NCBI GenBank assembly: GCA_043228905.1
Contig: JBHGNT010000004.1
Location: forward strand, 7,812,001-7,876,000
Origin: Azolla caroliniana
Lineage: Eukaryota > Plantae > Polypodiophyta
Length of the DNA: 64,000 nt
Reading direction: 5' to 3'
Shown here: in pieces, positions 394-57,097 of the stretch
Layout of the letters: each line of letters begins with the position of its first letter
Numbering within the stretch: the first letter of the stretch is position 1
Translations under genes and position numbers: made by a program
Notes under the pieces: generated by a model
What the model saw: only the letters and a program-made list of their open reading frames with translations
Told to the model about the DNA's origin: nothing
The model's database searches: none

Positions 394-550
394 GACATAT
401 ACAAGCTTTTTAAAGAATAACAAACCATCATGATATTCAAATTGTCGGTAGTCCATACCTGGTTGCTGAGACTGGGAACAGGATGCCCGAGAGGTATCAA
501 TGTGCGCTAGAATGTCTTGAGCAAAACTGTCTGTCTTCAAGTTCGCACGT
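394..550 (-). mobile_element. Continuation of Tcn1-like pol (RNaseH-integrase linker), split off by the 551-7978 insertion
   Basis: Removing 551-7978 and one ACGT copy restores the frame ...DAIR/ANLKTDSFAQDILAHI...FEYHDGLLFFKKLVYV. Confidence 0.8.
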
Positions 551-1468
551 TGTCGTGAAGAATGTGCTTCACGATATAAAAATGAGCTTAAATGTTGTAT
601 TTAATAATATTTGAGAGACTTGAACCCACATCCTTATAAACGATATACAATGTACATACCACTAGGCTAGGCTATTTATTTGTAAAAGTGTGTAATAAAT
701 GTGCTTCATGATATAAGAATGAAGCTATATATTGTATTAAGTAATATTGAGGGACTTGAACCCTCAACCTTGTATACCAAGCACCAAGTATACACCACTA
801 AGCTAGGTTAGTTATTTTAGAATGCATTTTCATCATTATACTTATCCCATATCTATTTTCATACATAGCCATCATTCATCACATGCAATGCATGTGCGCC
901 AAATGGCGATCATGCATTACATGTAACTCATGCATTGCATGCATGCCATGCTCCCATACATTACCATATGCATGGTAACACTTTTATAAAGAGGGGAAAG
1001 GGAAAACAAAGGGAATCAAGAGAGAGTGAGAAAATAATACAATCAAGTAAAGAAGTCTAGCTCATTGGGTGGAGAACCTCTCGTTTCGAAGTTGATGTCG
1101 TGGGTTCAAATCAAGGGTCGGTAGAGAATGTGTTCAGTTTGCGATCAAGGATTGTAAAGTTGGTAAAATATTATATTTTTAATATACATCATGTTTATAT
1201 CATATACTCTTGTTCCTTGATTCATACTTTGTCTCAATCTTCCTTCTTAAATCATATTTTGTGTCTATCTTGCTTCTTGAATCATATATTGTCTCTATCT
1301 TCTATCTATTCTCGTCTCTCTCTCTCACACATTACTCATAACTCTTCTTCTTGCTACTCTTAACCTTTCTAACATCACCATACAAGCCTTATTAAAAGTT
1401 AAGTTTCTTCAACTCCCCTTAACCTTAGTCCCCGCGACTTCGCCGCACGAACCACAACTACCCCGACA
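551..1468 (+). repeat. 5' LTR
   Basis: Near-identical to 7061-7978; TG...CA ends; TATA-like TTTTATAAA at 982-990. Confidence 0.97.
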
Positions 1469-1472
1469 CATT

Positions 1473-1490
1473 TGGTGAACCCGACGTGAA
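1473..1490 (+). promoter_or_regulatory. Primer-binding site complementary to the 3' end of tRNA-Trp
   Basis: TGGTGAACCCGACGTGAA is the reverse complement of the plant tRNA-Trp 3' end (TTCACGTCGGGTTCACCA), 4 nt after the LTR. Confidence 0.85.
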
Positions 1491-1507
1491 AGCGGCGACA
1501 AGGAGAA

Positions 1508-3622
1508 ATGGAGGAGCAAATGAGGCTTATGTGTACGATGATGGAACGAGTGATGCGGGAACAAGGGATGATGGCAAGCATCGACAAAGCCGTCGACAAT
1601 ATTCTCGCACGAGTAGGAATCTTCGAAGGTATAAATTTAACAAGTTTTCTGAAGATTTATAATGAAGAAATGCTTAAACGCGGTGTCGACGAAGCTACAA
1701 AAATTAATAGCTTTAGTCGAGTCGCTGCGATTGGGCTACAAGAGAGGATCCAAGAGCTCCAAAGGGAGAATCAGACATGGACAACATTCGAAAGGGCATT
1801 ACTCAATGAATACAACCTCAACGATATGTCAAGGATGACAAGGCAAGCTTTCATGGATTGGGTAGAGTCTAATAAACATTTAAGTGTTTTGGAAGTATTA
1901 AAAGAGTTTTCTGAAAGATTTGAGCAACTAAATGTTAGAGATAGAAATATAATAGTGCCAGATAAAGTAATATTGTTTCTACAAGCTACTAATATTAAAG
2001 ACAGGAAGGACTTGGGAATGCTTTTAGAAGATCAGAATAGTCCAAGTGGACTTACCGAAGACTGGGAGGAGGTGAAAAGGACGTGCGCCCATTTCTGCAA
2101 AAGAAAGTTATGGTTTATGGAGTTGCCCGACAGAAATGATGAAGAAACGGGGAACGAGTCGGGAGAAAAGAAAGTAGAAGAATCACTCTTACACGAATTA
2201 GTGAAAGGCATGAAAGACTTGTCGATCAAAGTGACGAAGCTAGAATCGGGACAAAGCTCGACTTCATCAAGGCAGGGAGGTGGAATGGTCCGAAGGTGTA
2301 TGTGGTGTGATAGTATCGATCACCAGAAGAAAGATTGTCAAGAGCATAGGGATGCTCTTAATCATAATAAAATCTACTATCAAGATGGCAAGATTCACTC
2401 AACTGAGACTCGACAACCACTTCAACTCAACTTCGGGCGAGGAGGAATGAAAAGGCTAATGGAAGATGCCGAGAGAGAAACGACTCAAGCGATACAATCC
2501 GTGGCAACCTTAGGATTGCGCGTAGAAGACTCATATGGTGGATCTGGCTTTTGGCAAGATGTGATGGATTATGCAAGAAAAGGGAAGGTTCGAGTGGATG
2601 AATTAAAAAGAGCGGGAGATGAAATACGAAACTTCACTGGATGGAATGATCCAGTAGACGCGCTATCAGCATTCGCCCAAGTGAATGCACAAGATGTGCT
2701 AGTGGAAGAGAAGCGAAAGAGAGCTGAGGAAGCTGATCCGACAAAGAGACATGAGACACGAGAACAGAAGAGAAGGGACATGGAAAAGGGTGCTACTGAG
2801 CCAAAGGAAGCTGATAAAGTAAAAGGAAAGACAGGCCCATCTTTCAAGCTTGCCTCAGACATAGAAACTACGACAGATATAAAAAAGGTACTAGAAACAA
2901 GAATACTAAATAGTAAGGTAGAATTTACTTTACGAGAAGTGTTGGGTATAGCAAAGAAAGAATTTCATGAAGTTATCATAGATATTATTAGAAGGAAGAG
3001 ACAGGTGACGGAGGAAATTACGGGAGGGTGTGCAACAACACTCCAAGATTTGTATGGTGGCACCATCAATGCTGCAAGTGTAAAAAACCAGAATGATGTT
3101 GGCGTCCATGAAGGGGATAGGAGTCACTATACAAGGGACCATTGGGCTCGAGCAACAACGGAGGCACCTGCAAAAATTGGGGAGCAGCAAATTCCATGTA
3201 TTGCTTTGATCGATCATGGATCAGAGATTAACATGATGTCATCGGAATTTTACGCTCGAGGACGGTGGCCGATCGACAAGAATCATGGGTGGAAAATAAG
3301 AGCTGCCACAGAAACTACGGAGGATCTATTCGGAGCATGTCCTAGTGTGAAGGTAACAATTGGTGATGTCTCGGTGAATCAAAATTTCTTTGTGTAGGAT
3401 CGATCAACCTACCCCGTCATCCTTGGCCAGCCCTACATCACCGCAGTGAGGATGGAAACAAAGGTTATTGATGATGGTTCGGCTTTCGCGAGAATCAAGA
3501 GTCAAGATGGAAGAAAGACTGTCCAATTCTTAACCGTGAGGCCCAACCATGAAAGAAACAAAGAATGCTTGAGGGAACATCCAATTCAAGAGATGGATGA
3601 AGAGTTTTCCCAGGATTTTTAG
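1508..3622 (+). CDS. Gag-protease ORF with an internal TAG at 3395-3397
   Basis: Zinc knuckle CMWCDSIDHQKKDC; aspartic protease ALIDHGSE. The frame continues past the TAG (DRSTYPVILGQP...SQDF*) to the stop at 3620-3622. Confidence 0.88.
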
Positions 3623-6600
3623 ATAGGGCTTTTACAGGTAGGGGCTGTGATAGCCCGAGCATAAAAGAAAACCCCATAAATAATAATGTAAATAAAGATA
3701 TTCCTTGTACAATCTCATCTAATGGTGCTACTTTTATACTAAAAGTAAATAATAATAAAATACAAAATGCTTTCGAGTACTTTAAGTGTTTTGGATTAAT
3801 AGATGATGATGAAGAAATTCAGGATATGTTTGAAGAATTAAGTTTTGAAGATACAATAACTCATTTGGAAGCAATGGAAGAAGACAATGAAATCCAAGTT
3901 CCTGTCCATTCAATCAAGATGTATGAGGTCATTGAAGAAGTTGCTCGAAAGGATCATGAAGCACATGTACTAACAAAGTACAAGACAGTGGAGAAGAAGG
4001 TTCGTCCTATTGCTGCTCCACTTCCAAGGGATAGTGAAAAGGCAATCAAAGAAGCAGCCACAGAGCCAATGATCAGAGACCCACGAAAGGTAGGACATGT
4101 GTTTACTCCGGAAACAATACAAGGGATGAAAATAGGAGGGGGTGACTTCCTATTACCCGCTGAAGAAAAGCAGTTCAGGGAGATGTTAAAAAGGCATGGA
4201 AAGGCGTTTGCATTCCAACCGGAGGAAATAGGGTGTGTGGATCCAGAAATTGTGGAGCCCATGGTTATATTCACTATCCCTCATATTCCATGGAACTTTA
4301 AGCCAATACCCATGCCTAGGGCTAGAATCCCTCAACTATTAGAACTTTTGAAAGAAAAGATAAGGATGGGTATCTTGGAACCATCGAACGCTCCTTACTC
4401 GAGTCGATGGTTCACTGTGTTAAAGAAAGATGGGCGACTCCGATTTATCCAAGATATGCAACCCGTGAATAAGGTAACAATCCGAAACTCGGGAGTAGGG
4501 CCAATTGTGGATGAGTTTGCTGAGATGTTTGCAGGAAGAGCTATATATTCAATGGGAGACCTTTATTCCGGGTATGATCAATTTCAACTTGCTATCAAAA
4601 GTCGAGATATAACTTCTATCAAGACACCTATAGGGTTAGTACGGATGTGCACCTTGCCGCAAGGAGCGACCAACTCAATGGCGCATATGATGAATGGAAT
4701 GAACAAGGTACTTCGTGATTTTATTCCTCATATTACAATGCCTTTTCTAGATGATGTTCCAATTAAGGGATGCAAGGAGGAAGAGAAGAACGAGGAATTG
4801 GACGAAAGTGGTTGCCGTCAATTCGTTGCTGATCATATCAAGGATTGTGAGAAGGTGCTATCAAGGATGGAAGAAGTGCATTTGACCTTATCAGGGGCAA
4901 AGTCAATATTTGGGGCAAAAGAGATATTAATAGTTGGTCATATGTGTGGCCCGTATGGGAGAAAGCCATCCCCAACCAAGGTCAATGCAATTCAAAATAT
5001 GCAAGAGGAATGTACATCCATCTCAGAAGTACGAAGGTTTCTGGGGGTATGTGTTTTTTACTGTAAATGGATTCCGCATTATGCCCATTTATCTGAACCT
5101 TTATATAGACTCCTAAGAAAAGGAGAGACATTTGAATGGAGTGAAGAGCATTCAAAGGCAATGAAAAAATTGAAGTACTACTTGGCACAAGCTCCACCAT
5201 TAAAGCAACCAGACTACACCCGGCCCATATATCTCACAGTAGACTCTAGTCCCATTGGAATTGGATGGGTGATAAGCCAGCAAGATAGGGAAGAAAGGTA
5301 TCCAGTCCGATTCGGGGCAAAGGTTCTTAGTGGTCGACAAAGAAAATATGCACAGGTGAAAAGAGAGCTATGGGGGATAGTAACAGCTGTAAAGACAGAC
5401 AGAGATTACTTAATTGGTGCTGAAGTAATAATAGAAACAGATTGTTTGCCTATTCTGGGTATCATAGCTAATTGTGATATTCCAGATCAAGCCATGTTAA
5501 GATGGTGTATCTATATTAGATCAATCAACCCTGAAGTTCGACATATCTCTGGGAATAGAAATGCAGTAGCAGATATGTTATCAAGAGCAAGATATGAGGA
5601 AGAGGAGATTCCAGACTCGGACGATGAGGACAAAGAACAAATAGTCCTTACCACAAGCATTACTCGGGAAGGAGGAATGCAGTTTCTAGAAGAGGAGTAT
5701 GAAGAAGAATTCAAGGAAATAGGGAAATACCTACAAACCCCTGACAAGTACAAAGGTCGATCGTTCGCACAGTTTCGCAAGAAAGCCCATAAGTTCTTCC
5801 TGCATGAAGGATATCTATGGCGACATCCGAAAACCAAGACTGGAAACCCGCAAAGAGTAATAGGTTCTGAAGGGCAAAGAAAGGAGATAATCAGAGAGCT
5901 GCATGACAAAGAATGGGCTGGTCATCGAGGAGTGTGGGCCACTTTCAGTAAGATTAAAGAACGATTTTGGTGGCCTCGATACTATGAGCAAATAAAAAAG
6001 TATGTGGAAACTTGTCCCACTTGTCAATATTATTCAAATGTAAAATTTTGTGATGAATTACACCCAACATACTCACCGGGGGTGCATTACAAGTGGATGA
6101 TAGATTTGGTAACAATGCCACTTGGAATAGGACAAAAGAGATACTTGGTTCTTGCTAGAGAAGATCTAACAAATCAAGTGGAAGGCCGTTCATTGCGAAC
6201 AAAAGGGACATTAGGAGTATGTCAATTCATTTTGGAAGACATTGTTTGTAGATATGGATGTATCGGGAAGATAGTGGCAGATAGGGGAGAACTCAATTCT
6301 GCGGAAGCTCAAGATTTTTTCGACAAAATAGGAATTCGGCTTTCTTTGACAATGGCGTACAATCTAGAAGCTAATGGAAAGGTAGAAAGGGGACATGGGC
6401 CAATAGTCAAAGCTTTGGCAAAGGCATGTAGAGGAAGGGTCAGTGATTGGCCAAAAACCTTAGCCTATGCACTATGGGCTGATAGGACAACTCACAGCAC
6501 TGTTACTGGATATATGCCTGCAGAATTAATCACAGGACAGAAGCCAATAATGCCAATTGAAGAAAAGATAACTACATGGGCTGTGTTGCCTTGGGAATCG

Positions 6601-7068
6601 GAAATGAGTAGGGAAGATTTACTTGCGGTTCGAATACGACAACTTCAATCAAGGACAGAAGACATAGAAAAAGCAGCTACTAGATTGAAAGAGGCAAGAA
6701 TCAAGAATAAGGACAGATTTGACAAGATGAAAAGAATACGACCAAGAAAAGTGCAAGAAGGAGATTGGGTATTAGTATATGATAATAGTCTAGATAATCA
6801 ATATAGTACTATTCGGAAGTTTTCAAAAAGATGGTTTGGACCTTATGAAGTTAGGAAAATAACAGATAAAGCCACATATTTCCTCAATGAATTAGATGGG
6901 ACAAAAATTCGTATCCCAATTGCAGGAAAAAGGATTAAAATATTTAAAAGGAGGGAGTCATTAGAGCCCGAATTTTATGAAGAAGTAGAAGAACTAAAAG
7001 AATCGGAAGAAGTGTTGGATGAACTCTGCACAACCAATGTGCAAGTTCAGAGGGGGTGGGTGTCGTGA
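3601..7068 (+). CDS. Pol (RT-RNaseH-integrase), in the -1 frame relative to gag
   Basis: RT (LPQGATNS, FLDD), RNaseH (DSS...ELW...TDC), integrase HHCC and DDE, GPY motif, no chromodomain. Frame is open from 3601. Confidence 0.95.
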   Translation, partial: RVFPGFLDRAFTGRGCDSPSIKENPINNNVNKDIPCTISSNGATFILKVNNNKIQNAFEYFKCFGLIDDDEEIQDMFEELSFEDTITHLEAMEEDNEIQVPVHSIKMYEVIEEVARKDHEAHVLTKYKTVEKKVRPIAAPLPRDSEKAIKEAATEPMIRDPRKVGHVFTPETIQGMKIGGGDFLLPAEEKQFREMLKRHGKAFAFQPEEIGCVDPEIVEPMVIFTIPHIPWNFKPIPMPRARIPQLLELLKEKIRMGILEPSNAPYSSRWFTVLKKDGRLRFIQDMQPVNKVTIRNSGVGPIVDEFAEMFAGRAIYSMGDLYSGYDQFQLAIKSRDITSIKTPIGLVRMCTLPQGATNSMAHMMNGMNKVLRDFIPHITMPFLDDVPIKGCKEEEKNEELDESGCRQFVADHIKDCEKVLSRMEEVHLTLSGAKSIFGAKEILIVGHMCGPYGRKPSPTKVNAIQNMQEECTSISEVRRFLGVCVFYCKWIPHYAHLSEPLYRLLRKGETFEWSEEHSKAMKKLKYYLAQAPPLKQPDYTRPIYLTVDSSPIGIGWVISQQDREERYPVRFGAKVLSGRQRKYAQVKRELWGIVTAVKTDRDYLIGAEVIIETDCLPILGIIANCDIPDQAMLRWCIYIRSINPEVRHISGNRNAVADMLSRARYEEEEIPDSDDEDKEQIVLTTSITREGGMQFLEEEYEEEFKEIGKYLQTPDKYKGRSFAQFRKKAHKFFLHEGYLWRHPKTKTGNPQRVIGSEGQRKEIIRELHDKEWAGHRGVWATFSKIKERFWWPRYYEQIKKYVETCPTCQYYSNVKFCDELHPTYSPGVHYKWMIDLVTMPLGIGQKRYLVLAREDLTNQVEGRSLRTKGTLGVCQFILEDIVCRYGCIGKIVADRGELNSAEAQDFFDKIGIRLSLTMAYNLEANGKVERGHGPIVKALAKACRGRVSDWPKTLAYALWADRTTHSTVTGYMPAELITGQKPIMPIEEKITTWAVLPWESEMSREDLLAVRIRQLQSRTEDIEKAATRLKEARIKNKDRFDKMKRIRPRKVQEGDWVLVYDNSLDNQYSTIRKFSKRWFGPYEVRKITDKATYFLNELDGTKIRIPIAGKRIKIFKRRESLEPEFYEEVEELKESEEVLDELCTTNVQVQRGWVS

Positions 7069-7978
7069 AGAATGTGCTTCACGATATAAAAATGAGCTTA
7101 AATGTTGTATTTAATAATATTTGAGAGACTTGAACCCACATCCTTATAAACAATATACAATGTACATACCACTAGGCTAGGCTATTTATTTGTAAAAGTG
7201 TGTAATAAATGTGCTTCATGATATAAGAATGAAGCTATATATTGTATTAAGTAATATTGAGGGACTTGAACCCTCAACCTTGTATACCAAGCACCAAGTA
7301 TACACCACTAAGCTAGGTTAGTTATTTTAGAATGCATTTTCATCATTATACTTATCCCATATCTATTTTCATACATAGCCATCATTCATCACATGCAATG
7401 CATGTGCGCCAAATGGCGATCATGCATTACATGTAACTCATGCATTGCATGCATGCCATGCTCCCATACATTACCATATGCATGGTAACACTTTTATAAA
7501 GAGGGGAAAGGGAAAACAAAGGGAATCAAGAGAGAGTGAGAAAATAATACAATCAAGTAAAGAAGTCTAGCTCATTGGGTGGAGAACCTCTCGTTTCGAA
7601 GTTGATGTCGTGGGTTCAAATCAAGGGTCGGTAGAGAATGTGTTCAGTTTGCGATCAAGGATTGTAAAGTTGGTAAAATATTATATTTTTAATATACATC
7701 ATGTTTATATCATATACTCTTGTTCCTTGATTCATACTTTGTCTCAATCTTCCTTCTTAAATCATATTTTGTGTCTATCTTGCTTCTTGAATCATATATT
7801 GTCTCTATCTTCTATCTATTCTCGTCTCTCTCTCTCACACATTACTCGTAACTCTTCTTCTTGCTACTCTTAACCTTTCTAACATCACCATACAAGCCTT
7901 ATTAAAAGTTAAGTTTCTTCAACTCCCCTTAACCTTAGTCCCCGCGACTTCGCCGCACGAACCACAACTACCCCGACA
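7061..7978 (+). repeat. 3' LTR
   Basis: Copy of 551-1468, preceded by a PPT and followed by TSD ACGT. Confidence 0.97.
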
Positions 7979-10900
7979 ACGTATGGCATCGGTAATCCGG
8001 GAATCCATTGGGGTGTGAAAAATCCGCGTTGTGTGCAATCGTGTTGGTCCCAAGATTACTTGCTTTTGATTATCAAACGTTGGATCATCAGGACGATGTG
8101 CAAGATATGAACGCCGTGATAGCGCATCTGCTTTTCCTTGCTGCTTTCCCGGTCGATATGTGATTTTGAAGTCGAAACGCGTGAGGAATTGAGCCCACCG
8201 AGCTTGCCGTCGATTTAGCACCCGCGCGTTCTGGAAATAAGCAAGGTTTTTGTGATCACTAAAGACGATGACTTGATGTGGAGAGCCCTCTAAGAAATGC
8301 TTCCATTGCACAAAGGAATCCACGATGGCTAATAACTCCTTGTCATGTATTTCGCAATTGATTTCCGCGGCATCGAATTTGCGCGAATGGAAAGCCACAG
8401 GATGTAACTCTTCTTTATCTCCTTGTTGAGAAAGGATGCTACCGAGGGCGAAATCCGATGCGTCGGCCTCCATGATGAATGATTTCTTTGTATCCACATG
8501 TGCTAGAATAGGAGCTGACGTAAAGGCTTTCTTAAGATGCTGAAAAGCCATGTCCGCTTCATTGGACCAAAGAAATGCTTGTCCCTTCTTCATAAGTTGT
8601 GTGAGAGGTAAAATAATCTTCGAGTAATCCTGTATAAACTTGTGGTAGAAGTTCGCAAAACCTAGAAAACATTGTACATCTCATACCAACTGTGCAATTT
8701 GCCACTCTAGCACAATTTGGACTTTAGTTAGATCCGTGCTCTTCTTGGGACTTCGAATAAATCAAGAGATCATCCAGATAGATGATCAAATAGATATCCA
8801 AGAGGTCTCTGAATATATCATTTGCCATGTGTTGGAAGACTGCGGGTGCATTGGTTAGACCGAACGACATAACAATATATTCGAAATGCCCATACCGCGT
8901 GCGAAAGGCGGTCTTCCATTCATCTCCCGGCCGGATCCGCACGAGGTTATACGCTCCTCGTAGATCGATTTTTGTAAAGAACTTGGCACCATTAACTCGC
9001 TCTAAAAGACTTGATATAAGAGGAAGTGCATACCTATTCCGGATGGTGACTTTATTTAAGCCGCGGTAATCAACGACAAGACGAAGTGAGCCATCTTTCT
9101 TCTTGACAAAGAAGATGGGTGCACTGGCCGGAGATTTCAAATGACGAAGAAACCCACTTTCCAAGTTCTCCTCTATGTAGGCTTGAAGGACTTCTAACTC
9201 AGTGGGGGACAAGTTGTAAATTGGTCCCCATGGTGGCTCTGCTCCCGGTTGTAGATCGATGGGACAATCATAGGGACGATGATGAGGAAGAGTACCGGTT
9301 TTTACCTTGTCAAATACATCGGCATAAGGATGATATTTTGCCGGAAGTTGTACTAAGGATTCCTCCTTAATAGGGCTGGAAGGATGTACTAATATTGCAA
9401 GTAGGAACATTGCCTCCTTGTGTCCTTCTTCGCGTAATTGACGTAGTGAAATGGTCAAAACTTGATGAGTAGATTCTTGGGGTTGTCGATGTCGGACTTC
9501 TCTTGTTCTCCAATCTATGTCTGGATTATGTAATTCAAACCAAGGTAATCCCAGGACAATGGGATGCTCTGGACTACTAATTATATTAAATGCTACTACA
9601 CACACAAAACTACCTAGGACAACTCGAATGGGTTCTGACTCTTCTACAATATTCCCGGAAGCAATGGGACGACCATCAATGACTACTACAGATGCGGGGC
9701 AAGGAAGTTTTCTTAAGGATATCTGAGAAGCTTGGGCAAAATTTCGATCCATGAAACAGGAATTAGCTTCGGAATCTAGAAGTGCTAGGACATGTACTAG
9801 GGGAGTACTTTTAGTACTAACCATGACTTGGGGTAGGAACACATTGCTAACTTGCTTGGAGGGAATGGAACCACTAATGGGCTGTACAGATCTAGGGTTG
9901 TCCAACCAAACGACTCCTATTTTGGCTAGACTCAATCGTTTAACTCTTCATCTAATTGACTAAGGATTTCAAATTTGTTTGAGATACTTGGGCTATTAGT
10001 ACTATTAATACTATCAAACAATCTATTAGTACTATTAATACTATTAGACACTCCTAAGGGAAGAATTGACTCGGGTTTAGTACAGGCGACGATTTGATTT
10101 ACCTGTCTTCTTGGACTATGGGGACAATTGATTGCGATATGCCCTGGTCCACCGCAATAAAGACATAATCGATTTGCACGTCGTCGTTGCTTTTGTTCGT
10201 CCGATAACGAGCCACGTCGACGCATGGTATCGATATCCATCAGTATCGAAGTATTTGCTTGAGGTATGTCTCGTGCAAACGGTTTAGCTGCGATTGAGGC
10301 GTAAGTGGGCTCCGGCCTAGAGCGTGGTATCTATAATTGACATTCCGAACGCCGTTCGAAAAGGCGGTTGTCACATCTGACCGCTCGACTGATTGCCTCC
10401 GTAAGAGACTTTGGTTCTTCGGGGAATGTTAGAAGTAGATCTTTGACATCGTTTCGCTGGCCGTAGCGAAATTGCTCCATTAGTGCTTGATCATCCCAAG
10501 GGATATCTGAAGCGAGTAGACGGAAATCCGCTGCGTACATAGACGCTAGACGATCGCCTTGACACAATCGTTGGATCTTGTTGATCGTCGTCCTGATGAT
10601 GTCGGTGTCTCCAAAGCCGGCTTTAAACTCACTAATAAAATCTTCAAAGTTATTAAGCAAGGGCGATTGTTTTTCTAGAATTGGAGCGAACCATGCTAAG
10701 GCCGAGCCGCTAAGCAACGTGCCTATTAGGCTGACTCGGGATGCATTAGTGGGGTATCGGGAAGGATGCATTTGGATGACTAATCATACCGATCCTTGTT
10801 GTTGCAATGCTGCTTCGAGTTGTTGTACCCATAACGCTAACTCCCCATGATGTTGCTGCGTTTGTTGTTTTTCTAGGGCGATTTGTTGCAGATCCCCTAT

Positions 10901-11511
10901 CAACCGTTGGTTTTCTTGTTCCAAGGCAACAAATTTTTCTTTTAGGCATTGTAGCTCGGAGAAAACGGATTGATATTCTTGGGCGCTAACAGTAGCCATA
11001 GTATAGGTAAAAGGGTAGGAGGATGAGGGAGAACGACAAGTAGGGTTGAGGAAAAATTGGTTTGAACTGTCAGGAATAGTACTAAAGCAAAGAGAATTAG
11101 TACTAAAGAATGGAAGTACTATTAGTACTAAGAGGACGAGACTGCGTAAGATTCCCGAGAGAGAAAGAGAGAAGGGAAGAGAGAGATAGCGAGGATGAGA
11201 GAGAGAGAGAGACGATGATGATAACAACTAATGTATTATGTGAAGGATAAGTACAAAGTGGCTAAGAGGCTTAAGACTGGCATTGAACCAATTTGGTTCA
11301 ACATAATCCCTAGTGCCTTCTTTTATAGTATTCTCAGGAGTAATCCTGAAGCTTCTAGAATGTTCCAGAGAAATCTAGAATATACATTAACTTCCTATAA
11401 TAAAAGTTAAATGAAAATAATATTCTACGTATTACAATAGATGGTATAATGGTCAAGAGCTCGACCCATATAACATAAGGTCATGGGTTTGAGTCTTGCC
11501 ATATCATGACA
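7979..11511 (-). mobile_element. Degenerate Tcn1-like Ty3/gypsy element (gag, PR, RT, RNaseH) with a probable short 5' LTR at about 11239-11511
   Basis: Gag fragments (MATVSAQEYQ; LLSGSALAWF; CLYCGGPGHIAINC), PR ALLDSEAN, RT FTKIDLRGAYNL / YLDDLLIYS, RH DASDFALG. Frameshifts and stops present; LTR limits tentative (minus TGTCATG...TTCACA). Confidence 0.85.
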
Positions 11512-12288
11512 GATTGATCCCCCCCCATTACACAAGCCTTACAAGGGTTTTTATAGGTTTATCTATCCTTCTAACATGCACAAAACCATGTGGGCTTGAA
11601 CCTGTGGTTTTCGGGCACACGGTTTTCCTTGTGGCATGCACAAAACCATAGGCTAAAACCATGGTTTTGTGTACACGATTTTGTTTGTTTGTTTCCTATG
11701 GAATACTAAATATGAAAAGGAAATATACAAAATCTAAAGCACTTAGTAGTAGCTTTAGTGGTAAGATAATTGCTTCCTATCTTACAAATGCAAGGTTCAA
11801 ATCTTGCTTGCACCCTTCTATATGCACTTGAATGTCATCAGACCCTAGGCTAATTTTCATATTTATAATCATGTGTATAATGTGTGTGGAGCCACACTAT
11901 TTCACAATTTCTCCCATTGGACACAGAACATCACAACAACGTCACACAACCGCTCCCGTTCTGGCTGTTGCTGCTGCGGCGGTGATACCGGCAATTCAAT
12001 GATCGGTTCTTGATTCACCGGTACTGCCGTGTCCTAGACCGTTGGTTCCACGATGTCCTACCGCAGCCCTTGCTCCGTTCCCGATTCTTGTTGAGCCAGT
12101 TATGCTGCCTTCCTCGGCTACGGATCCTCAGGGGAGGGTTCCCGTAAATTGTCCTATGTTAGCCTTGATGTTCCCCCTTTGTGGCCCTTTTCTCTTCTCT
12201 GGTAACGCCTTTGAAGCGTCTCGGTCGGCTCGTCTTCCTATTGTTCTTCTTCCAGGGTCTCGTTGTTGATTAACGCCGCCAAGGGGTC

Positions 12289-15900: not shown

Positions 15901-16892
15901 TCCGTAAACGACAGTGAAAAGGCATCGGTCACTGTCGCCGCATTGAGTTTTCGGTAATCAACGCACACCCGGATTTTACCGTTCTTTTTCGGCACGATGA
16001 CTATGGGACTTAACCATGTGGCTTTTTTCACTGGTCGGGTAAAACCGACCCGTAGCAACTTGTCAATTTCCTCTTTGACTTTTGCCTCATAGTTAGGGTT
16101 CATCCGGTAATGCCGTTGTGCTACCGGTTTGGCATCTTTACTGAGGTGTATTTGGTGTTGGTACAACTGAGGATCCAGTCCTCACATGTCTTCATAGGAC
16201 CAGGCGAATACGTCTCGGAATTCCTTTAATAAAGTGATCATCGCCATTCTGTTGTCTAGTGACATTTCCTTAGCAATATGAACCGGTCTAGCGTTGTCCC
16301 CGGTCCCTAAGTTCACTTCCTCTAACTTGGATGCTTTCACGCGTTGGGATATAGCCATCTCCCTCTCCAGAGATTCCTGTGCTTGCCGTAAATCTCTGAT
16401 AGCTTCCCAATCTGGTTCCTCGATGGCATCATCTGATTGCATTCTATATGGTGGCACTACTTCCGCCACATCGATTTCAAATAGGGGTACAATTTTTGGG
16501 TTTTCTTCTAAGTACCGGTCAACCTCTTCGTCCGCAAGCCCCTTGAGCATGTTTACCCCTTCCGCATATAGCAGTGTCAGCTCCTTGCCGGCACTTGCTC
16601 GGGGGTGGGTAGGTACCCTTTAGTCTTTCCTTGCCGGAAGGTAATCATGTTTTTCCGCCAATTTTGTTTGATATGCGCCGTTTTTAGCCATGGGCGGCCC
16701 AGCAATGGCGGGTAAGCCCCTTGCGCATTGAGCTAGAGAACCACCGCCGAAATGCGGAATGCATGACCTCTGATAGTTACAACTAGATCCCGTATCAACC
16801 CGGTAGGTCTTACTGAACTTGTATCCGCCATCCGGAGCCAAAACTGGCAAGGCTCCCATTCCTGGATTCCCAGGGTATTACAAGTCCGTAGA

Positions 16893-18291
16893 TGTTGTCC
16901 GCTGGAATAGTAACCGACGGCCAAAAGCGTAGGAATAAGAAACTATATAAAGCGTAACGTATGTAACGGTTCACACGGGTACGCGTGAACGGCTAATTAG
17001 ACCCTGCATATATAAAGGGCAGAAAACCTCGTAAGGAGGTGTGTGTAAATTCTGGGAATTGTAAAAAGAATGCCTGATAATAGAATACTATCTTCTCTGA
17101 GTTTCTGTGTATAGCTACGGCTAATTCAGTGTCTGTGTCTCGGATATGTAATCGTAAGAGTACGTAAGCGCAACCTGTGAGAAGGAGTCGGTTGTAGCCG
17201 TCTCCCCTTACACACAGCGGAGTCACAGAGATTCTCTCCTTACGTAGTACGATTAAGCTTTGTTCGTTGTTCCACACCCACCTTGGGGTCTAGGTCGAAG
17301 GACTGACCACGGACCGTGTTTCCTAAGAGGCAACACTTTTGGCACGCCCGGTGATCTGTGTTTCCTCATAGACGAGCAACAACGAATGGATGTTTAGCCG
17401 CAGATGACTCAGAGTTCCCCACAAGACCAGATAGCGAAACGATTAACCAACAAAAGGTCCAGCCCACGCCATCTTCAGAAAACGCGGAAAATAGTGCGGA
17501 CCAGGCGGAATCCCCGCCCCACGCCCAGGGACACACAAAAACGGCCAACACCGCGGAGGACGTAACAATAGCGGCGGAGCACCAGCCGACAGCAAGCACG
17601 CTACCGGCGGAGCCTAGTCCACGAACTCAAGAAGAGCCCACCGTACCCGGACCACCCGCACACGGCGAAGGCGACTCCGAGAGAAACCAGGCCGACCAAG
17701 CAGAGGAGCCGCACCACGATGCTCCTATGGGCCCTACATCAACTCCGGCTGAGGACACCACAACAGAGCCAAACATCCGGGCCATTTTGGAAGAAGATTA
17801 ACGGGATGGGTCCGACATGCAAATGCACTGTCCCACAAGCGTGCCAGGTGTTGTCCGCGGAAATAGTAACCGACGGCCAAAAGCGTAGGAATAAGAAACT
17901 ATATAAAGCGTAACGTATGTAACGGTTCACGCGGGTACGCGTGAACGGCTAATTAGACCCTGCATATATAAAGGGCAGAAAACCTCGTAAGGAGGTGTGT
18001 GTAAATTCTGGGAATTGTAAAAAGAACGCCTGATAATAGAATACTATCTTCTATGAGTTTTTATGTATAGCTACGGCTAATTCAGTGTCTGTGTCTCGGA
18101 TACATAATCGTAGGAGTACGTAAGCACAACTTGTGAGAAGGAGTCGGTTGAAGCAGTCTCCCCTTACACACAGCGGAGTCACAGAGATTCTCACCTTACG
18201 TAGTACGATTAAGCTCTGTTCGTTGTTCCACACCCACCTTGGGGTCTAGGTCGAAGGACTGACCACGGCCCGTGTTTCCTAAGAGGCAACA
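16893..18291 (+). mobile_element. Small non-autonomous (TRIM-like or internally deleted) LTR element inserted into the host protease region
   Basis: 443-bp LTRs at 16893-17335 and 17849-18291; TSD GTAGA/ATAGA; PBS TGGCACGCCCGGTG at 17340; 513-bp internal region with an acidic/Pro-rich ORF remnant; no PPT. Confidence 0.92.
17340..17353 (+). promoter_or_regulatory. PBS complementary to a tRNA-Arg(UCU)-type 3' end
   Basis: TGGCACGCCCGGTG, 4 nt after the 5' LTR end. Confidence 0.8.
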
Positions 18292-24617: not shown

Positions 24618-25334
24618 TAGAATTGTGTGTTTTGCTTCCTGTCTTCTATTTGTTCGACACCAATACACACTACATTATAACCGGTTGGGGCCGTCTTCGA
24701 TCTCTTCATAAATGATGATGAGGATACTACCGGCCACAACCGGTTCATACATGTGTGTATGCGGATGCAAAGATCGAAATGACAAAAAAAAAATAGAAGA
24801 CAGGAAATAAAAGTACAGAAACACTGTTGTATGTATGGCTGGACTAGCCGCAACACAGGTGTCTATCCGACACTTCTCCAAAGGGGTGGTAGGGATAGGA
24901 TGTTAATACACGCGTATGATAATTACACTTAAGCACAGACGAAGACAAGATTAATAAGCATAAGCAAAACTGTATTAATTCTTCGCCACTTCATTACAAA
25001 CATCGGATCCTTTTATAGGCATCCGGCCAGATTACAATCGGTGCTCGGTAGGCAACCGTTAACCGAAACCGAATCGGTTCGGATCCGGATCGGTTACAAC
25101 TACCAGATCCGTCCCTCCTAATAATTCTATTCCTATTTCTATATTTATCCGATCCGACCTTGCTTCCCCATTTGCCTTCTCTGACCGGCCAACACATGGC
25201 ACGCCCGTGGGAAAGTGCATTGCACTTCGAACCCACAGCCGGCTTCAGTCTTCCTCCAAATTATCCCGCAAACTCCGCTCAGAGGTTTCAAGTGTTGTCT
25301 TGCCTGTGCCGTCTCCGACTTCTGATTGGATTGG

Positions 25335-26345
25335 CTACCTTTTCGCATCTTGCTGCTCCGACTCTGCTTGTACCGGTGGTACCGGTGTTTCTTCTGTATC
25401 CTGTCCGGGTCTGTCCTGCTCCACCTCCGTTCCGTTCCCGGTATCGCTCTCTCCGGTTTCCACTGGTTGTGTCCTTTCCTCCCCGGATTCGGTACTTCTC
25501 TGTCTCCACTCTGCATCATCCCCGGCATCAACCTGTTCTTGCTCCGAAAGTTCTTCCTCGGGTAATTCTTGTCGGGGTGCATTGTTGGTTGGGTCCTCTT
25601 CAGCCGGTCGCTCGCCCTCACTGATGGAGATCGGCGTTGTGTGTCCCTCGGCTTCCTGTCGCAGTCGGTCCTTCTCGTACCCTTCCAATTCTAGTTGGGT
25701 TTCGAGCTGCCCGTCATCCAACCTCTCTACTAACCCTCGGATTTCCTTGAGATGCTCTTCTGCTAGAGCATAGAAATCCTCCGACAATTCTTCCCGGATG
25801 TTGACGATACTTTCTTCGTCCATTTTATAGAACCCATCTCCGGTTTTCTTCCGATTTTCTGCATCAGCTCGGAGTGTCTGCAGTTCAGCTGCCTGTTGTG
25901 CCCATTCCCTCCAGAGTTTCTCCGTGCTTTCATTTATGCTGGCCTGAGCTCGGGTACTCCAACTTGACATGATGAACTTAATTCGGTCAACCCCTGCTTT
26001 AGCCTGTTCCGAAGCTGCTTGTTTTTCCTTCCTTATCCGTTTGATGATGTCGGCCATTAACTGAGCTTGAGCTTCAGAGTCGGCTTTTTGCTTGTCACAG
26101 GTACTCCGCCATTTGTTGATTTCGAAAGTCGACTTCACTTTTTCCTCGTTCCTGCTCTCTGTCAGCTCCCCTACTTTCTGTCGAAGTACTTCCATCTCCT
26201 TTCTTTGTTCCGACGTCAAGGTCTTCTCCGTCGATACTTCCTCCCTTGCTTTGGACAATTCCAAGCGGTTTTCCTTGAGCTGCTCTTTCAGCTTCTCTAT
26301 CTGTCGGTCGTACGTTGCTGCCTGATTCTTGATGTCCGACGATAG
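25335..26345 (-). CDS. Coiled-coil/acidic ORF remnant (3' part of an Athila-like extra ORF), copy 1
   Basis: Uninterrupted frame, K/E/Q-rich heptad-like N half and acidic disordered C half; native start missing (fused to the LTR). Confidence 0.6.
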   Translation of the reverse strand, partial: LSSDIKNQAATYDRQIEKLKEQLKENRLELSKAREEVSTEKTLTSEQRKEMEVLRQKVGELTESRNEEKVKSTFEINKWRSTCDKQKADSEAQAQLMADIIKRIRKEKQAASEQAKAGVDRIKFIMSSWSTRAQASINESTEKLWREWAQQAAELQTLRADAENRKKTGDGFYKMDEESIVNIREELSEDFYALAEEHLKEIRGLVERLDDGQLETQLELEGYEKDRLRQEAEGHTTPISISEGERPAEEDPTNNAPRQELPEEELSEQEQVDAGDDAEWRQRSTESGEERTQPVETGESDTGNGTEVEQDRPGQDTEETPVPPVQAESEQQDAKR

Positions 26346-26855
26346 TGTTGTATGTATGGCTGGACTAGCCGCAACACAGGTGTCTATCCGACACTTCTCC
26401 AAAGGGGTGGTAGGGATAGGATGTTAATACACGCGTATGATAATTACACTTAAGCACAGACGAAGACAAGATTAATAAGCATAAGCAAAACTGTATTAAT
26501 TCTTCGCCACTTCATTACAAACATCGGATCCTTTTATAGGCATCCAGCCAGATTACAATCGGTGCTCGGTAGGCAACCGTTAACCGAAACCGAATCGGTT
26601 CGGATCCGGATCGGTTACAACTACCGGATCCGTCCCTCCTAATAATTCTATTCCTATTTCTATATTTATCCGATCCGACCTTGCTTCCCCATTTGCCTTC
26701 TCTGACCGGCCAACACATGGCACGCCCGTGGGAAAGTGCATTGCACTTCGAACCCACAGCCGGCTTCAGTCTTCCTCCAAATTATCCCGCAAACTCCGCT
26801 CAGAGGTTTCAAGTGTTGTCTTGCCTGTTCCGTCTCCGACTTCCGATTGGATTGG

Positions 26856-27866
26856 CTACCTTTTCGCATCTTGCTGCTCCGACTCTGCTTGTACCGGTGG
26901 TACCGGTGTTTCTTCTGTATCCTGTCCGGGTCTGTCCTGCTCCACCTCCGTTCCGTTCCCGGTATCGCTCTCTCCGGTTTCCACTGGTTGTGTCCTTTCC
27001 TCCCCGGATTCGGTACTTCTCTGTCTCCACTCTGCATCATCCCCGGCATCAACCTGTTCTTGCTCCGAAAGTTCTTCCTCGGGTAATTCTTGTCGGGGTG
27101 CATTGTTGGTTGGGTCCTCTTCAGCCGGTCGCTCGCCCTCACTGATGGAGATCGGCGTTGTGTGTCCCTCGGCTTCCTGTCGCAGTCGGTCCTTCTCGTA
27201 CCCTTCCAATTCTAGTTGGGTTTCGAGCTGCCCGTCATCCAACCTCTCTACTAACCCTCGGATTTCCTTGAGATGCTCTTCTGCTAGAGCATAGAAATCC
27301 TCCGACAATTCTTCCCGGATGTTGACGATACTTTCTTCGTCCATTTTATAGAACCCATCTCCGGTTTTCTTCCGATTTTCTGCATCAGCTCGGAGTGTCT
27401 GCAGTTCAGCTGCCTGTTGTGCCCATTCCCTCCAGAGTTTCTCCGTGCTTTCATTTATGCTGGCCTGAGCTCGGGTACTCCAACTTGACATGATGAACTT
27501 AATTCGGTCAACCCCTGCTTTAGCCTGTTCCGAAGCTGCTTGTTTTTCCTTCCTTATCCGTTTGATGATGTCGGCCATTAACTGAGCTTGAGCTTCAGAG
27601 TCGGCTTTTTGCTTGTCACAGGTACTCCGCCATTTGTTGATTTCGAAAGTCGACTTCACTTTTTCCTCGTTCCTGCTCTCTGTCAGCTCCCCTACTTTCT
27701 GTCGAAGTACTTCCATCTCCTTTCTTTGTTCCGACGTCAAGGTCTTCTCCGTCGATACTTCCTCCCTTGCTTTGGACAATTCCAAGCGGTTTTCCTTGAG
27801 CTGCTCTTTCAGCTTCTCTATCTGTCGGTCGTACGTTGCTGCCTGATTCTTGATGTCCGACGATAG
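26856..27866 (-). CDS. Coiled-coil/acidic ORF remnant, copy 2
   Basis: Same translation as copy 1. Confidence 0.6.
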   Translation of the reverse strand, partial: LSSDIKNQAATYDRQIEKLKEQLKENRLELSKAREEVSTEKTLTSEQRKEMEVLRQKVGELTESRNEEKVKSTFEINKWRSTCDKQKADSEAQAQLMADIIKRIRKEKQAASEQAKAGVDRIKFIMSSWSTRAQASINESTEKLWREWAQQAAELQTLRADAENRKKTGDGFYKMDEESIVNIREELSEDFYALAEEHLKEIRGLVERLDDGQLETQLELEGYEKDRLRQEAEGHTTPISISEGERPAEEDPTNNAPRQELPEEELSEQEQVDAGDDAEWRQRSTESGEERTQPVETGESDTGNGTEVEQDRPGQDTEETPVPPVQAESEQQDAKR

Positions 27867-28236
27867 TGTTGTATGTATGGCTGGACTAGCCGCAACACAG
27901 GTGTCTATCCGACACTTCTCCAAAGGGGTGGTAGGGATAGGATGTTAATACACGCGTATGATAATTACACTTAAGCACAGACGAAGACAAGATTAATAAG
28001 CATAAGCAAAACTGTATTAATTCTTCGCCACTTCATTACAAACATCGGATCCTTTTATAGGCATCCAGCCAGATTACAATCGGTGCTCGGTAGGCAACCG
28101 TTAACCGAAACCGAATCGGTTCGGATCCGGATCGGTTACAACTACCGGATCCGTCCCTCCTAATAATTCTATTCCTATTTCTATATTTATCCGATCCGAC
28201 CTTGCTTCCCCATTTGCCTTCTCTGACCGGCCAACA

Positions 28237-32867: not shown

Positions 32868-35249
32868 CTAGATGGAGAGATCTACGTTGATGTCATTCCA
32901 CCAACAATGTCCTCGTGTGTCCCATGCTTCATTTTTCCATCTCAAGGTTTCAACCTTGTTTGCTTCCACATGCATGCCGGAAGCTGAATACATGTTTCTC
33001 ATACACACATATGCAACACCACACTTCTTATCTAAGTCTACCAACTGATCAAAGACCCATTTTCCAAGCTTCACATTCACCCATTTGGAACATGCACCCA
33101 ACAAAGCTAATAACAAGGGAAAACGATTCTTGTATTGCACCATCTCGAGCATACTTACAGCTTTGCTAAAGTGTCCCGCTCGACCAAAAAGATCGACCAT
33201 GGAGGTGTAGTGCTTTAATGTCGGAAAAATACCATAGAGAACGCCCATATCATCAAATATTCTGTGCCCCTCATCCATTAGGCCTGCATGGCTACATGCC
33301 ATGAGAAGAACAAGAAAGGTAACTATATCTGGCGCAATATTGTCATCTGATACCATTTCCTTGAACAAATAAAAAACGTTCTGGGCTTGACCTAGCTGTG
33401 CATATCCAGCCATCAATAAGCTCCAAGATACGATATCCCTGACTTGAATCTTGCGAAACACATCTTCTGCCTTTTCTAACATACTACATTTAGCATACAT
33501 GTCCACCAATGCAGATTCAAGCATAATGTTTCCTTGCAAGGATCCACTTTCATGGCTAACTTCTGCAGATATCTCTTCACCCACCTTGAGAGAGCCTATG
33601 CTTCCACAAGCTTTCAAACCACAACAATATGTGATAGCATCCGGTGAAATTCCCTCATCCTTCATCTTCCAGAGGCAATTCAGAGACTCCTCAAAGAAAC
33701 CATGTTGGGCATATCCAACCATGAGCGTATTCCAACCGACAATATCATGATGTGAAAGACCATTAAACACTTCTTGTGCTTTTTCCATAGATCCACATTT
33801 GGCATACAAATTCACTAACATATTTCCAAGCTCAATATTTTTCTCCAGTAACCCTTGCTTCTTGACATCTTTGTGTATCTTTTCTCCCATCTGAAGATCT
33901 CCAATGCTACAACAAGCTTTTAATACACAAATATATGTGATTTGATCGGGGTGAATGCCTTCACTTTGCATTTGCCTGAAACAAGTTAAAGCTTCATGGC
34001 CAAGGCCGTGCCTTGCATACCCCGAAATAAGTGCACTCCATGAGACAACATCATGTACCTGAAGCCGATCAAATACTTCTTGTGCTTTTCTCAGTTCACT
34101 GCAATTCACATACATGTCCACTAATGTCGGCCCAAGGGCTTTGCTCTTTTCTATCAAACCTCGCTTTTCGACCTCAGCATGTATCTTTTCTCCCTTTTCA
34201 AGAGACCCAATGGCACCGCAAGCTTTCAATATACTGACAAAAGTGAGAGCATTAGGGGAGACACACTTCTTCTCCAGTTTCATCTTCTTTAAGCAATCCA
34301 AAGCTTCATCGATAAGTCCATGCCGGGCATATCCAGCTATTAGTGCATTAAAAGATACCACATCTCGTCTTGGGAGAAGCTCATTGAAAACTTCTTGTGC
34401 TTTCTTGAGCACTCCACATTTCGCATACATATCCACCAATGCTGTGCCCAGTACCATATCCTTCTCTAGCAAAAAGCCATGATCCATTACTTGGCTATGG
34501 ATCTCTTCTCCTACCTCCAAAGACCCTTTCCCAGCACAAGCTTTTATAACACAAAGAAAAGTAACCAAATTCGGGGATATGCCCTCATTTTGCATCTTTC
34601 TAAAGCAAAACAAAGCCTCATCGAAAAGTTCGTGCCGAGAAAAGCCAGAAATCATTGCATTCCACGAGATAATATTGCGAATCAGGAACTCGTCAAAGAC
34701 CTTCTCCGCTGCTCGAACAACATTACACTTTGCATACATGTCCACTAAAGCAGTGCCAAGAATTATATTCCTCTTTAAGAGACCCCGTGAGATGACCATG
34801 GCATGTATTTCTTTACCAACAGAAAGATCTCCGCTGCAACTACAAGCTTTCAGAAGGCATGAAAAAGTGACTGCGTCTGGAAGGATAGCTTCCTCACACA
34901 TCAATCTATAACATTTTAAAGCTATATTGTGACCAGAGTCTTGCTTTGAGAAGCCAGTTATCAGGGTATTCCAAGCCACAAGATCTCTCACAGGAAGAAT
35001 ATCAAATAGTTTTTGGGCATCTCCCATTTCGCCACACTTTGCATAGAGGCTAAGCAGGGCGGTAGAGACATGTATGTCTTTACTATTATAGACCTCATTT
35101 TGGTTAACAATTCTTCGTGCTTTCTTCAGATCTTTGAGATTTTGGCAAGATTTGATCAATCCCACAAGGGATTTACGGCCTATCTGATTGCTAGGTAAGC
35201 CATTGGACAGAGAAATTCCAGAAGCAGCGGGTTCATGGACGCCCTGCAT
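32868..35249 (-). CDS. PLS-class pentatricopeptide repeat protein with C-terminal E domain and no DYW (organellar RNA-editing factor type), intronless
   Basis: 793 aa with repeated triplets (ALVDMYAKCG...A..VF / DVVSWNALI.GY / P..VTF..VLKAC), terminal LMACSHAGL, HYTSMVDLFGRAG, E-domain-like end RGHCWW. Confidence 0.95.
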   Translation of the reverse strand: MQGVHEPAASGISLSNGLPSNQIGRKSLVGLIKSCQNLKDLKKARRIVNQNEVYNSKDIHVSTALLSLYAKCGEMGDAQKLFDILPVRDLVAWNTLITGFSKQDSGHNIALKCYRLMCEEAILPDAVTFSCLLKACSCSGDLSVGKEIHAMVISRGLLKRNIILGTALVDMYAKCNVVRAAEKVFDEFLIRNIISWNAMISGFSRHELFDEALFCFRKMQNEGISPNLVTFLCVIKACAGKGSLEVGEEIHSQVMDHGFLLEKDMVLGTALVDMYAKCGVLKKAQEVFNELLPRRDVVSFNALIAGYARHGLIDEALDCLKKMKLEKKCVSPNALTFVSILKACGAIGSLEKGEKIHAEVEKRGLIEKSKALGPTLVDMYVNCSELRKAQEVFDRLQVHDVVSWSALISGYARHGLGHEALTCFRQMQSEGIHPDQITYICVLKACCSIGDLQMGEKIHKDVKKQGLLEKNIELGNMLVNLYAKCGSMEKAQEVFNGLSHHDIVGWNTLMVGYAQHGFFEESLNCLWKMKDEGISPDAITYCCGLKACGSIGSLKVGEEISAEVSHESGSLQGNIMLESALVDMYAKCSMLEKAEDVFRKIQVRDIVSWSLLMAGYAQLGQAQNVFYLFKEMVSDDNIAPDIVTFLVLLMACSHAGLMDEGHRIFDDMGVLYGIFPTLKHYTSMVDLFGRAGHFSKAVSMLEMVQYKNRFPLLLALLGACSKWVNVKLGKWVFDQLVDLDKKCGVAYVCMRNMYSASGMHVEANKVETLRWKNEAWDTRGHCWWNDINVDLSI

Positions 35250-51539: not shown

Positions 51540-51580
<41 letters not shown>

Positions 51581-51845
51581 CTCTATACAACAATATGACA
51601 ATAACAACTACCTTAAAGTGATTGCCCTAAGTCATATTTATACTTATATGAAATCAGGGCTATTTACAAATATAGCCTCAATAGGCTTGCTCAAGACATA
51701 TTTATGAATATGTCTATGTTCCGGTTCTCACCAACTCTCTTCTAGTTCTCACCAAGTCTCCTCCAGTTTCCGGATCTCTTCCGGTTCTCACCGGGTCCTC
51801 TTTATTCATCACCGGATCCCATCCGGAGAGACCGATTTCCCAACA
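46238..51845 (-). mobile_element. Ty1/copia element, degenerate, nested in the chromovirus integrase
   Basis: LTRs 46238-46772 and 51282-51845; perfect TSD GGAAT; PBS TGGTATCAGAGCGA (51265-51278); PPT GAAGGGGGAGAT; domain order gag-PR-INT-RT-RH (WVVDSEAS, LWHKRLCH, QLDVKAAFLHGDL, YVDD). Confidence 0.96.
46941..47393 (-). mobile_element. Solo LTR of the 44700-58047 chromovirus family, inserted in the copia RNaseH
   Basis: Colinear with 44700-45138; interrupts YHW|IRERV; TSD degenerate (CAAGT/CCAAT). Confidence 0.9.
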
Positions 51846-53427: not shown

Positions 53428-53953
53428 TGTTGAGCGGGCAAGCTCAATCGGATCTGGATCATTTGAATAAGCCAGAGCCGGATCGATATCCGGAACGGAG
53501 AACTGGATAAGTATCCGGATCGATGTCCGGAACCTAGAGCCGATTGATATCTGGAATGAAGAACTGGATAAGTACCCAAATCGGTGTCCGAAAATATTGG
53601 TATCTGGAACCTAGAGCCAGATCGTAATCTGGATAAGGATGAACCAGTAGGCTATTAGAGGCCTACAAATCTAGCCTAGTACGTAGGCATATTTTTGGGA
53701 GTTAGTGTCGGTCGCTCGTATGAGCATTGAAGTACATGTCATTACTTCTTTCAGTCCTTTTAAGGACTTGTATAAAAAGTGTTCAATAAGACATTGTATG
53801 TACATAGTGTTATTATTTTGAATTGAGTTTTTTTGTTCTGCTCTCTCTCTAACTCTCTTGCGTACTCAAGCTTTCCATTAAACCTCCATTCTGTGTTCTG
53901 TTGTTATCCAGACTAGCCGGTTTTGTCTTAGCTTCCGCACATTATCTTTCACA
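53428..53953 (+). mobile_element. Solo LTR of another family, inserted in the chromovirus RT
   Basis: TGTTGAG...TTTCACA with perfect TSD TAACC; TATAAAA at about 53771 on the plus strand. Confidence 0.9.
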
Positions 53954-56900: not shown

Positions 56901-57097
56901 AAAATGTGACGATGGCCACCAAGATCCTTTCCCCGAAAAGGACAACATTCGATATACAAAATCACGTAATAACGAATATACACATACCTATATTTATCAC
57001 ATGTATACAATCAAATATGTATACCCATGACCACACATGCGTATACTAAAAAAAATCGTAACATAAAATGGCCAACAAATGATGAAATCGAGACACG

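Follow-up and report, generated by a model that had tools for sequence, protein, structure and literature searches.

tRNA-like A/B-box cassettes in the long terminal repeats of a fern Ty3/gypsy retrotransposon and its relatives

The LTRs of a coding Ty3/gypsy element in a 64-kb stretch of fern DNA (the whole of which is called the window below) were found to carry tRNA-like cassettes, each consisting of a Pol III A box and B box at tRNA spacing. Such cassettes occur non-randomly and are spread over many related families; their box cores are conserved and the tRNA cloverleaf has been lost. They are real and likely to be under selection. The explanation that we prefer, with roughly even confidence, is that they are worn copies of tRNA genes whose boxes have been kept as docking sites for TFIIIC and Pol III, and that these sites would keep the chromatin of the LTR Pol II promoter open against silencing.

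Structure of the carrier element and its cassettes

The carrier is a Ty3/gypsy element of 7,428 bp (~7.4 kb) at 551-7978 of the window, with the following features:

547..550 (left copy) and 7979-7982 (right copy), no strand: 4-bp target site duplication (TSD) of the NCGN type
551..1468, plus: 5' LTR of 918 bp with TGTCG...CGACA ends and 2 mismatches to the 3' LTR
561..817, plus: two-copy tandem unit (561-681 against 698-817, offset 137 bp, 78.5% identical)
616..669, minus: cassette 1, with the A box at 669-659, the B box at 626-616 and, further downstream, a T5 run at 582-578
749..805, minus: cassette 2, with the A box at 805-795, the B box at 762-752 and, further downstream, a T4 run at 687-684
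882..974, no strand: partly palindromic cluster of eight CATGCA/TGCATG motifs, flanked by cassette 2 and the TATA box
985..990, plus: TATAAA, the likely Pol II TATA box, judged from the motif and the alignment with relatives
1058..1113, plus: cassette 3 (A box 1058-1068, B box 1103-1113; first T5 run 1176-1180)
1473..1490, plus: primer binding site (PBS) of the tRNA-Trp type, near-identical to the PBS stretch of the RSV_PBS model
1508..3397, plus: gag-protease ORF with a DUF4100 match, closing at an in-frame stop within the protease region
3601..7068, plus: pol ORF (RT, RNase H, integrase) of 1155 codons, stop-free
7049..7060, plus: polypurine tract
7061..7978, plus: 3' LTR, in which the three cassettes recur (A boxes starting at 7179 minus, 7315 minus and 7568 plus)

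The interior is filled by gag-protease-RT-RH-integrase, with no chromodomain and no extra domain. The gag-protease and pol frames overlap briefly (3601-3622), which suggests a frameshift between them. The LTR pair differs at 2 of 918 positions, one of them in the middle of cassette 1, and since these are the only differences the insertion is very young. The initial annotation had called the element recently active; the window copy was inserted recently but carries a private in-frame stop in the protease region (3395-3397) that was found in none of the 38 relatives spanning the site. The match of the PBS to the Rous sarcoma virus PBS model was weak (E 0.75), and the site, whose isotype we take to be tRNA-Trp, is of the same type in many relatives. 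The named integrase relatives were from Riccia and Ceratopteris, at 46-66% identity.

By its TSD, PBS and domain content the element appears to match the Phygy lineage, in which 100% of the 4-bp TSDs are NCGN and 81% of the primers are Trp (PMC6317226). The likeness covers the 4-bp NCGN TSD, the tRNA-Trp PBS, the lack of an extra ORF and of a chromodomain and a similar size; on the other hand, Phygy was defined from Physcomitrella at 7.7-10.0 kb, whereas the present element is 7.4 kb long and comes from a fern (PMC6317226). No tRNA-like LTR boxes are mentioned in the available part of the Phygy description (PMC6317226).

The initial annotation had placed two antisense cassettes and one sense cassette in the LTR, and all three were recovered in place by a motif scan based on what we take to be the general A/B-box consensus and tRNA position numbering. 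The A-to-B offsets of cassettes 1, 2 and 3 are 43, 43 and 45. The antisense cassette was duplicated with the tandem unit, the offset of which bears out the units of about 137 bp described before. The B box of cassette 2 does sit in a perfect 5-bp T arm (749-765), as had been proposed, and its A box begins 180 bp upstream of the TATA box. Cassette 3 is located 73 bp downstream of the TATA box and would thereby fall in the R region. Further TATAAA sequences are present in the 5' LTR at 575 and 635. All three cassettes recur in the 3' LTR at +6510, again in line with the earlier claim. The three cassettes compare with a mean of 0.007 in 1000 dinucleotide shuffles of the LTR, in which at most one was obtained per shuffle.

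The claim that the tRNA arms and acceptor stems have decayed agrees with the results of the tRNA searches. ARAGORN called no tRNA in the window or in the 60 of 80 relative loci scanned, and Rfam gave no tRNA match in the window (E up to 10) or in 12 loci. No 5S rRNA match was obtained with Rfam in the window at E up to 10. Relaxed ARAGORN settings produced 230 calls across the window and were discarded as noise. An origin from the element's own primer tRNA was not supported, as cassette positions 60-73 matched the primer 3' end at 5.0 of 14 positions on average, and at 3 to 5 in the window family.

Two other features of the U3 were observed. A hairpin lies at the U3 end right after TGTCG, at 553-574 of the window and at the LTR starts of L008, L019, L024, L048, L065, L077 and others. 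Its stem sequence varies among families with the pairing kept, and in a raw count 14 of 25 families had a predicted DNA energy of at most -4 kcal/mol. The window element has the U3 block with the CATGCA/TGCATG cluster in common with families 12 and 14, at 70-82%. This cluster is presumably an RY-type motif; such motifs are bound by B3-domain factors.

Distribution among relatives and conserved positions

Relatives were found with an integrase alignment of 28 proteins, and the best 80 of 258 stretches in metagenome contigs were used. These loci are repeats in contigs assembled from short reads and may include chimeras; together with the window element they formed 33 families at 85% DNA identity. 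An LTR segment of at least 250 bases was available in 25 families, and L044 makes 26. Among viral contigs, six matches to the PBS pattern were obtained, none of them encoding a pol relative, and the integrase search gave none.

A fixed-rule scan of the LTR segments, 64,003 bp in total, yielded 31 strong cassettes, as against none in the coding DNA (246,890 bp) and 0.07 in shuffles. When a profile built without the family under test was used, 37 were found in the same LTR segments, and none in the coding DNA or in five shuffles; both LTR counts (31 and 37) include the two LTRs of the window element and near-identical copies. Offsets from 25 to 70 were scanned, and the A-B offset was 43-45 in 28 of 33 pairs. 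Cassettes were present in 10 of 25 families (11 of 26 with L044), and in 7 of the 13 families with a complete LTR. The remaining 15 of 26 families, including 6 of the 13 with a complete LTR, had none, so the cassettes are dispensable. The sister family (L008/L009), whose LTR segments are incomplete, is one of these cassette-free families.

By their non-core sequence the cassettes fall into 11-14 types. Positive families are scattered on both sides of the midpoint of an integrase tree of 56 rows. On this tree nine cassette changes were counted, an approximate number, since L027, L052, L016 and L029 had been mislabelled as cassette-free by the duplicate filter or the strict cut-off; their cassettes were found in the profile scan. 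Family 12 is not an independent positive case, because its positive LTRs (L033 and L052) have a family-0-type U3. The LTR at L033:6758-7010 and the 5' LTR of L052 are recombinant: 127 bases of a family-12 start are followed by a family-0-type LTR start and U3, with the same junction in both contigs. Two tRNA-like cassettes were seen outside Phygy LTRs, one with possible remains of an acceptor stem in microsatellite-rich DNA (L050:3070-3150), the other directly after a Copia-like RNase H remnant (L060:12010-12075).

The window itself contains a second cassette-bearing LTR, in an unrelated element:

11239..11906, minus: 5' LTR of the Ty3/gypsy host element, with two cassettes (11442-11496 and 11750-11804) in U3, antisense to the host

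The carrier is inserted into the pol region of this minus-strand host, ~3.5 kb from the host's cassettes. The host RT shows 30% identity over 149 residues and its capsid is of the Ty3 type; no tRNA primer site was seen in the host, which is likely to be a chromovirus. The nearest cassette of the host LTR begins ~115 bp upstream of the likely TATA box. A 70-nt cassette is common to family 14 and the host LTR at 76-79% (E 1e-8), with no other similarity between them, and this isolated match points to a mobile donor or to an exchange of LTR pieces. The remaining LTR-like repeats and the rest of the 64-kb window gave no cassette above score 18, with one weak match at 22876.

The rest of the window holds several further features. 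Two 446-bp repeats, 96% identical and ~510 bp apart, form a TRIM-like structure (16890-18291), and an inverted copy of the repeat with 84% identity lies at 2-393. A tandem array with a period of 1521 bp and more than 99% identity occupies 24825-28236. A chromodomain-bearing Ty3/gypsy element (44700-58047) contains a nested Copia element (46236-51845), which in turn contains another LTR copy (46934-47393). On the minus strand, an intronless PPR reading frame of 799 codons was found at 32868-35267; its best named matches are mostly from Adiantum and Ceratopteris, none above 50% identity, which fits a fern as the source.

For the analysis of conservation, 28 distinct cassettes were used (35 minus six near-duplicates and one L044 match at an LTR edge). 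The conserved columns were those of the A and B boxes and, at positions 44-47 (86-96%), those of a four-base motif that had played no part in the cassette search. Between families the core was 90% identical, a value inflated by the fact that cassettes were found by their boxes, whereas the rest was 32% identical (26% when shuffled). A single decayed B box was observed, in L039. The initial annotation had proposed a comparison of box positions with spacers, and the boxes proved the more conserved in two tests that avoid the bias of box-based finding. Between the window and L007, orthologous by position, all 31 aligned core sites were identical, compared with 465 of 582 other LTR sites (80%, p 0.001). 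The result held for G/C sites only (16/16 core sites against 139/191 others, p 0.008) and against four-fold integrase sites (115/132, p 0.02). Among variants in contigs of four runs with four coded organism labels, counted at 8% or more, 1 of 26 core sites and 36 of 174 other sites were variable (p 0.026; 40 of 43 variant rows listed); with G/C sites only, the figures were 1/12 and 18/54, a difference that was not significant (p 0.08).

No stem covariation was detected in the 28 cassettes (T stem p 0.73, anticodon 0.85, acceptor 0.18). A conserved cloverleaf or T-arm structure across families was rejected, there being no excess of stem pairing, and the perfect T arm of cassette 2 is accordingly not borne out as a conserved structure. 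In a single case, pair 52:62, the bases changed in step in three of four runs. Because the box cores are kept and the tRNA stems are not, selection is likely to act on a DNA site and not on an RNA fold.

Promoter layout and possible roles

TATA boxes were called from the motif, the choice among several candidates being made by eye. With these calls, the distance from the start of the nearest U3 cassette to the likely TATA box downstream of it is ~150-260 bp in families 0, 4, 5, 6, 7, 8, 14, 17 and 23. In families 5 and 8 the U3 cassette has the sense orientation, whereas in families 0, 4, 6, 7, 12, 14, 17, 19 and 23 it is antisense. A sense cassette follows the TATA box in families 0 and 14 (at +73, alike) and in family 7 (at +128, of another type). 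What the cassette-bearing LTRs share is the presence in U3 of a cassette, sense or antisense, that precedes the TATA box by ~150-260 bp. A divergent layout with the TATA box at its centre, to which attention had been drawn before, is present in the window LTR but does not hold as a general rule, as it occurs in 3 of 11 cassette-bearing families; it is recurrent but optional.

Plant type-2 Pol III promoters have two upstream signals, TATA at about -35 and CAA at about -7 to -3 (PMC3082873). The A and B boxes of the cassettes are at tRNA spacing, as in such promoters, and the flank upstream of the cassettes has an AT content of 74-75%. An upstream TATA was present in 14 of 28 cassettes (6.6 expected), spread over -40 to -1 with no sharp peak. 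The upstream CAA signal was found in 5 of 28 and was not enriched (p 0.48). The sense strand of the carrier contains 34 runs of T4 or more, the first at 1176-1180, 63 bases past cassette 3. Because of these runs Pol III should be unable to make the genomic RNA, which on this sequence must come from Pol II.

The boxes at fixed spacing, the lost stems, the free orientation and the restricted position fit a DNA site for TFIIIC with TFIIIB and perhaps Pol III. According to the docking-site explanation, tRNA genes or tRNA-derived SINEs would have been captured in LTRs on several occasions. Purifying selection during LTR copying may then have kept the A and B boxes at tRNA spacing, the rest being left to drift. 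TFIIIC would bind the predicted box sites and TFIIIB would load on the AT-rich flank, perhaps with Pol III. The docked complex could finally act as a barrier that keeps the chromatin beside the LTR Pol II promoter open, which is the least certain step. The barrier formed by a tDNA in fission yeast is effective in both orientations and depends on TFIIIC and Pol III as well as on the A box and TATA (PMC2040200). Since Pol III cannot make the genomic RNA and the fission yeast barrier is independent of orientation, a role in barrier formation or open chromatin is favoured. Against it, the clustered tRNA genes of Arabidopsis, some of which lie in transposons, are silent and methylated even though their boxes are intact (PMC7544208); the presence of boxes is thus not protective in itself. 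The weak plant upstream signals and the fact that over half of the families are cassette-free also count against the docking-site reading.

It is also conceivable, but unlikely, that the boxes are kept for short Pol III RNAs (~105-140 nt, to the nearest T run), or for a Pol III occupancy that dampens the LTR, and so limit or tune the element. The A box and the spacing are kept as well as the B box, the U3 cassettes are mostly antisense, and Pol II promoters near tRNA genes are repressed in yeast. A T4 run occurs within 60 nt downstream of 14 of 20 antisense cassettes, compared with 31% of 384 cassette-free U3 windows (p 0.0006). However, T4 runs were also present upstream of the same antisense cassettes in 9 of 17 windows (p 0.23) and may reflect base composition, they follow only 3 of 8 sense cassettes, the RNA fold is unconserved and the orientation varies. 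Integration offers another role, which we consider very improbable: Pol III factors brought in by the cassettes would guide the integrase or draw other elements into LTRs. Yeast Ty3 provides a parallel for integration guided by Pol III factors, and Dictyostelium TRE5-A reportedly another, and the family-0-type LTR start inside the family-12 LTR of L033 and L052 would fit. However, the carrier itself lies in the pol region of its host, far from the host's cassettes, no insertion upstream of any cassette was found within the window, and Phygy prefers NCGN (PMC6317226).

The cassettes might instead be passengers, that is, heads of tRNA-derived SINEs or tRNA pseudogenes in AT-rich LTRs that are copied along without benefit. 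A SINE insertion has been proposed as the origin of Helenus (Kojima 2024, PMC10886601). The many families without cassettes, the 70-nt cassette in family 14 and the host LTR, which suggests a mobile source, and the free tRNA-like copy in the microsatellite-rich flank of L050 are all consistent with this origin. As an explanation by itself it is nevertheless rather improbable, given that core sites exceed both the LTR and the four-fold background in two independent tests and that the position relative to the TATA box is narrow. A search for SINE traces, which had been suggested as a check, revealed no SINE body, A tail or TSD around the three window cassettes, although old insertions can lose these, and elsewhere in the 64-kb window no clear free cassette occurs. 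The docking-site explanation leaves room for a SINE origin; it is neutrality alone that conflicts with it.

Known systems and significance

The closest system is Helenus/TRIMp3, which also has tRNA-like sequence in both LTRs, conserved around boxes A and B, and no working tRNA (Kojima 2024, PMC10886601). These elements are non-coding, 311-1263 bp long and thought to use Pol III for their own RNA (PMC10886601), whereas the carrier has 7,428 bp with gag and pol. Unlike Helenus, it has as many as three cassettes in an LTR, most of them in U3 in antisense orientation, beside the TATA box, and its sense T4+ runs make a Pol III origin of its element RNA improbable. The initial annotation had drawn a parallel with Cassandra TRIMs. 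It stands in that a Pol III promoter from a small RNA gene lies inside a plant LTR, but Cassandra is 5S-derived, non-coding and transcribed from its 5S promoter (per PMC10886601), whereas the carrier has tRNA-type boxes, is coding and is too long for Pol III; Helenus, with tRNA-derived LTRs, is closer. A tRNA dimer at the primer site is a different case (PMC3286476).

A functional tRNA gene has a paired cloverleaf, which ARAGORN, Rfam and the covariation analysis did not find in the cassettes. The fission yeast barrier (PMC2040200) is an intact host tRNA gene at a centromere, demonstrated by experiment, whereas the sites considered here are decayed copies on a mobile element, with a proposed role. 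The view that TFIIIC sites act as chromatin barriers, also put forward in the initial annotation, holds for yeasts and animals, but the available part of a plant review gives no plant case (PMC9540200).

According to Kojima (2024), parts of tRNAs are contained in 'not a few LTRs' of Repbase, and short elements alone were analysed there; autonomous partners must use Pol II, and little shared LTR sequence is expected (PMC10886601, as far as available). In view of the first remark, the bare observation of tRNA parts in the LTRs of longer elements is probably not unseen. The literature covered, which did not extend to subscription journals and Repbase reports, contained no description of plant elements with coding capacity whose LTRs carry A/B cassettes that are conserved and positioned. 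The known small-RNA promoters in LTRs belong to short non-coding elements whose RNA is thought to be made by Pol III. In the present case the boxes are conserved in elements too long for Pol III, and they must therefore serve a role other than the production of element RNA.

A wider proposition is offered tentatively, as possible rather than probable. In at least two lineages, full-length plant LTR elements may have captured tRNA-gene promoters repeatedly and retained them, at a set distance from the Pol II promoter, to serve as portable barriers of TFIIIC/Pol III. Anti-silencing of this kind would require no protein encoded by the element, and fern genomes would thereby have a mobile source of Pol III docking sites that number in the thousands. 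Around 7,500 tRNA genes have been predicted in one fern (PMC13578239, PMC13437025, both as far as available), and cassettes of this kind may confuse fern tRNA annotation, though ARAGORN calls none of those seen here. If the cassettes are barriers, they would represent a cis-acting route by which retrotransposons resist silencing, and the families with and without cassettes, in both orientations, would form a natural test set for tRNA-gene insulators in plants.
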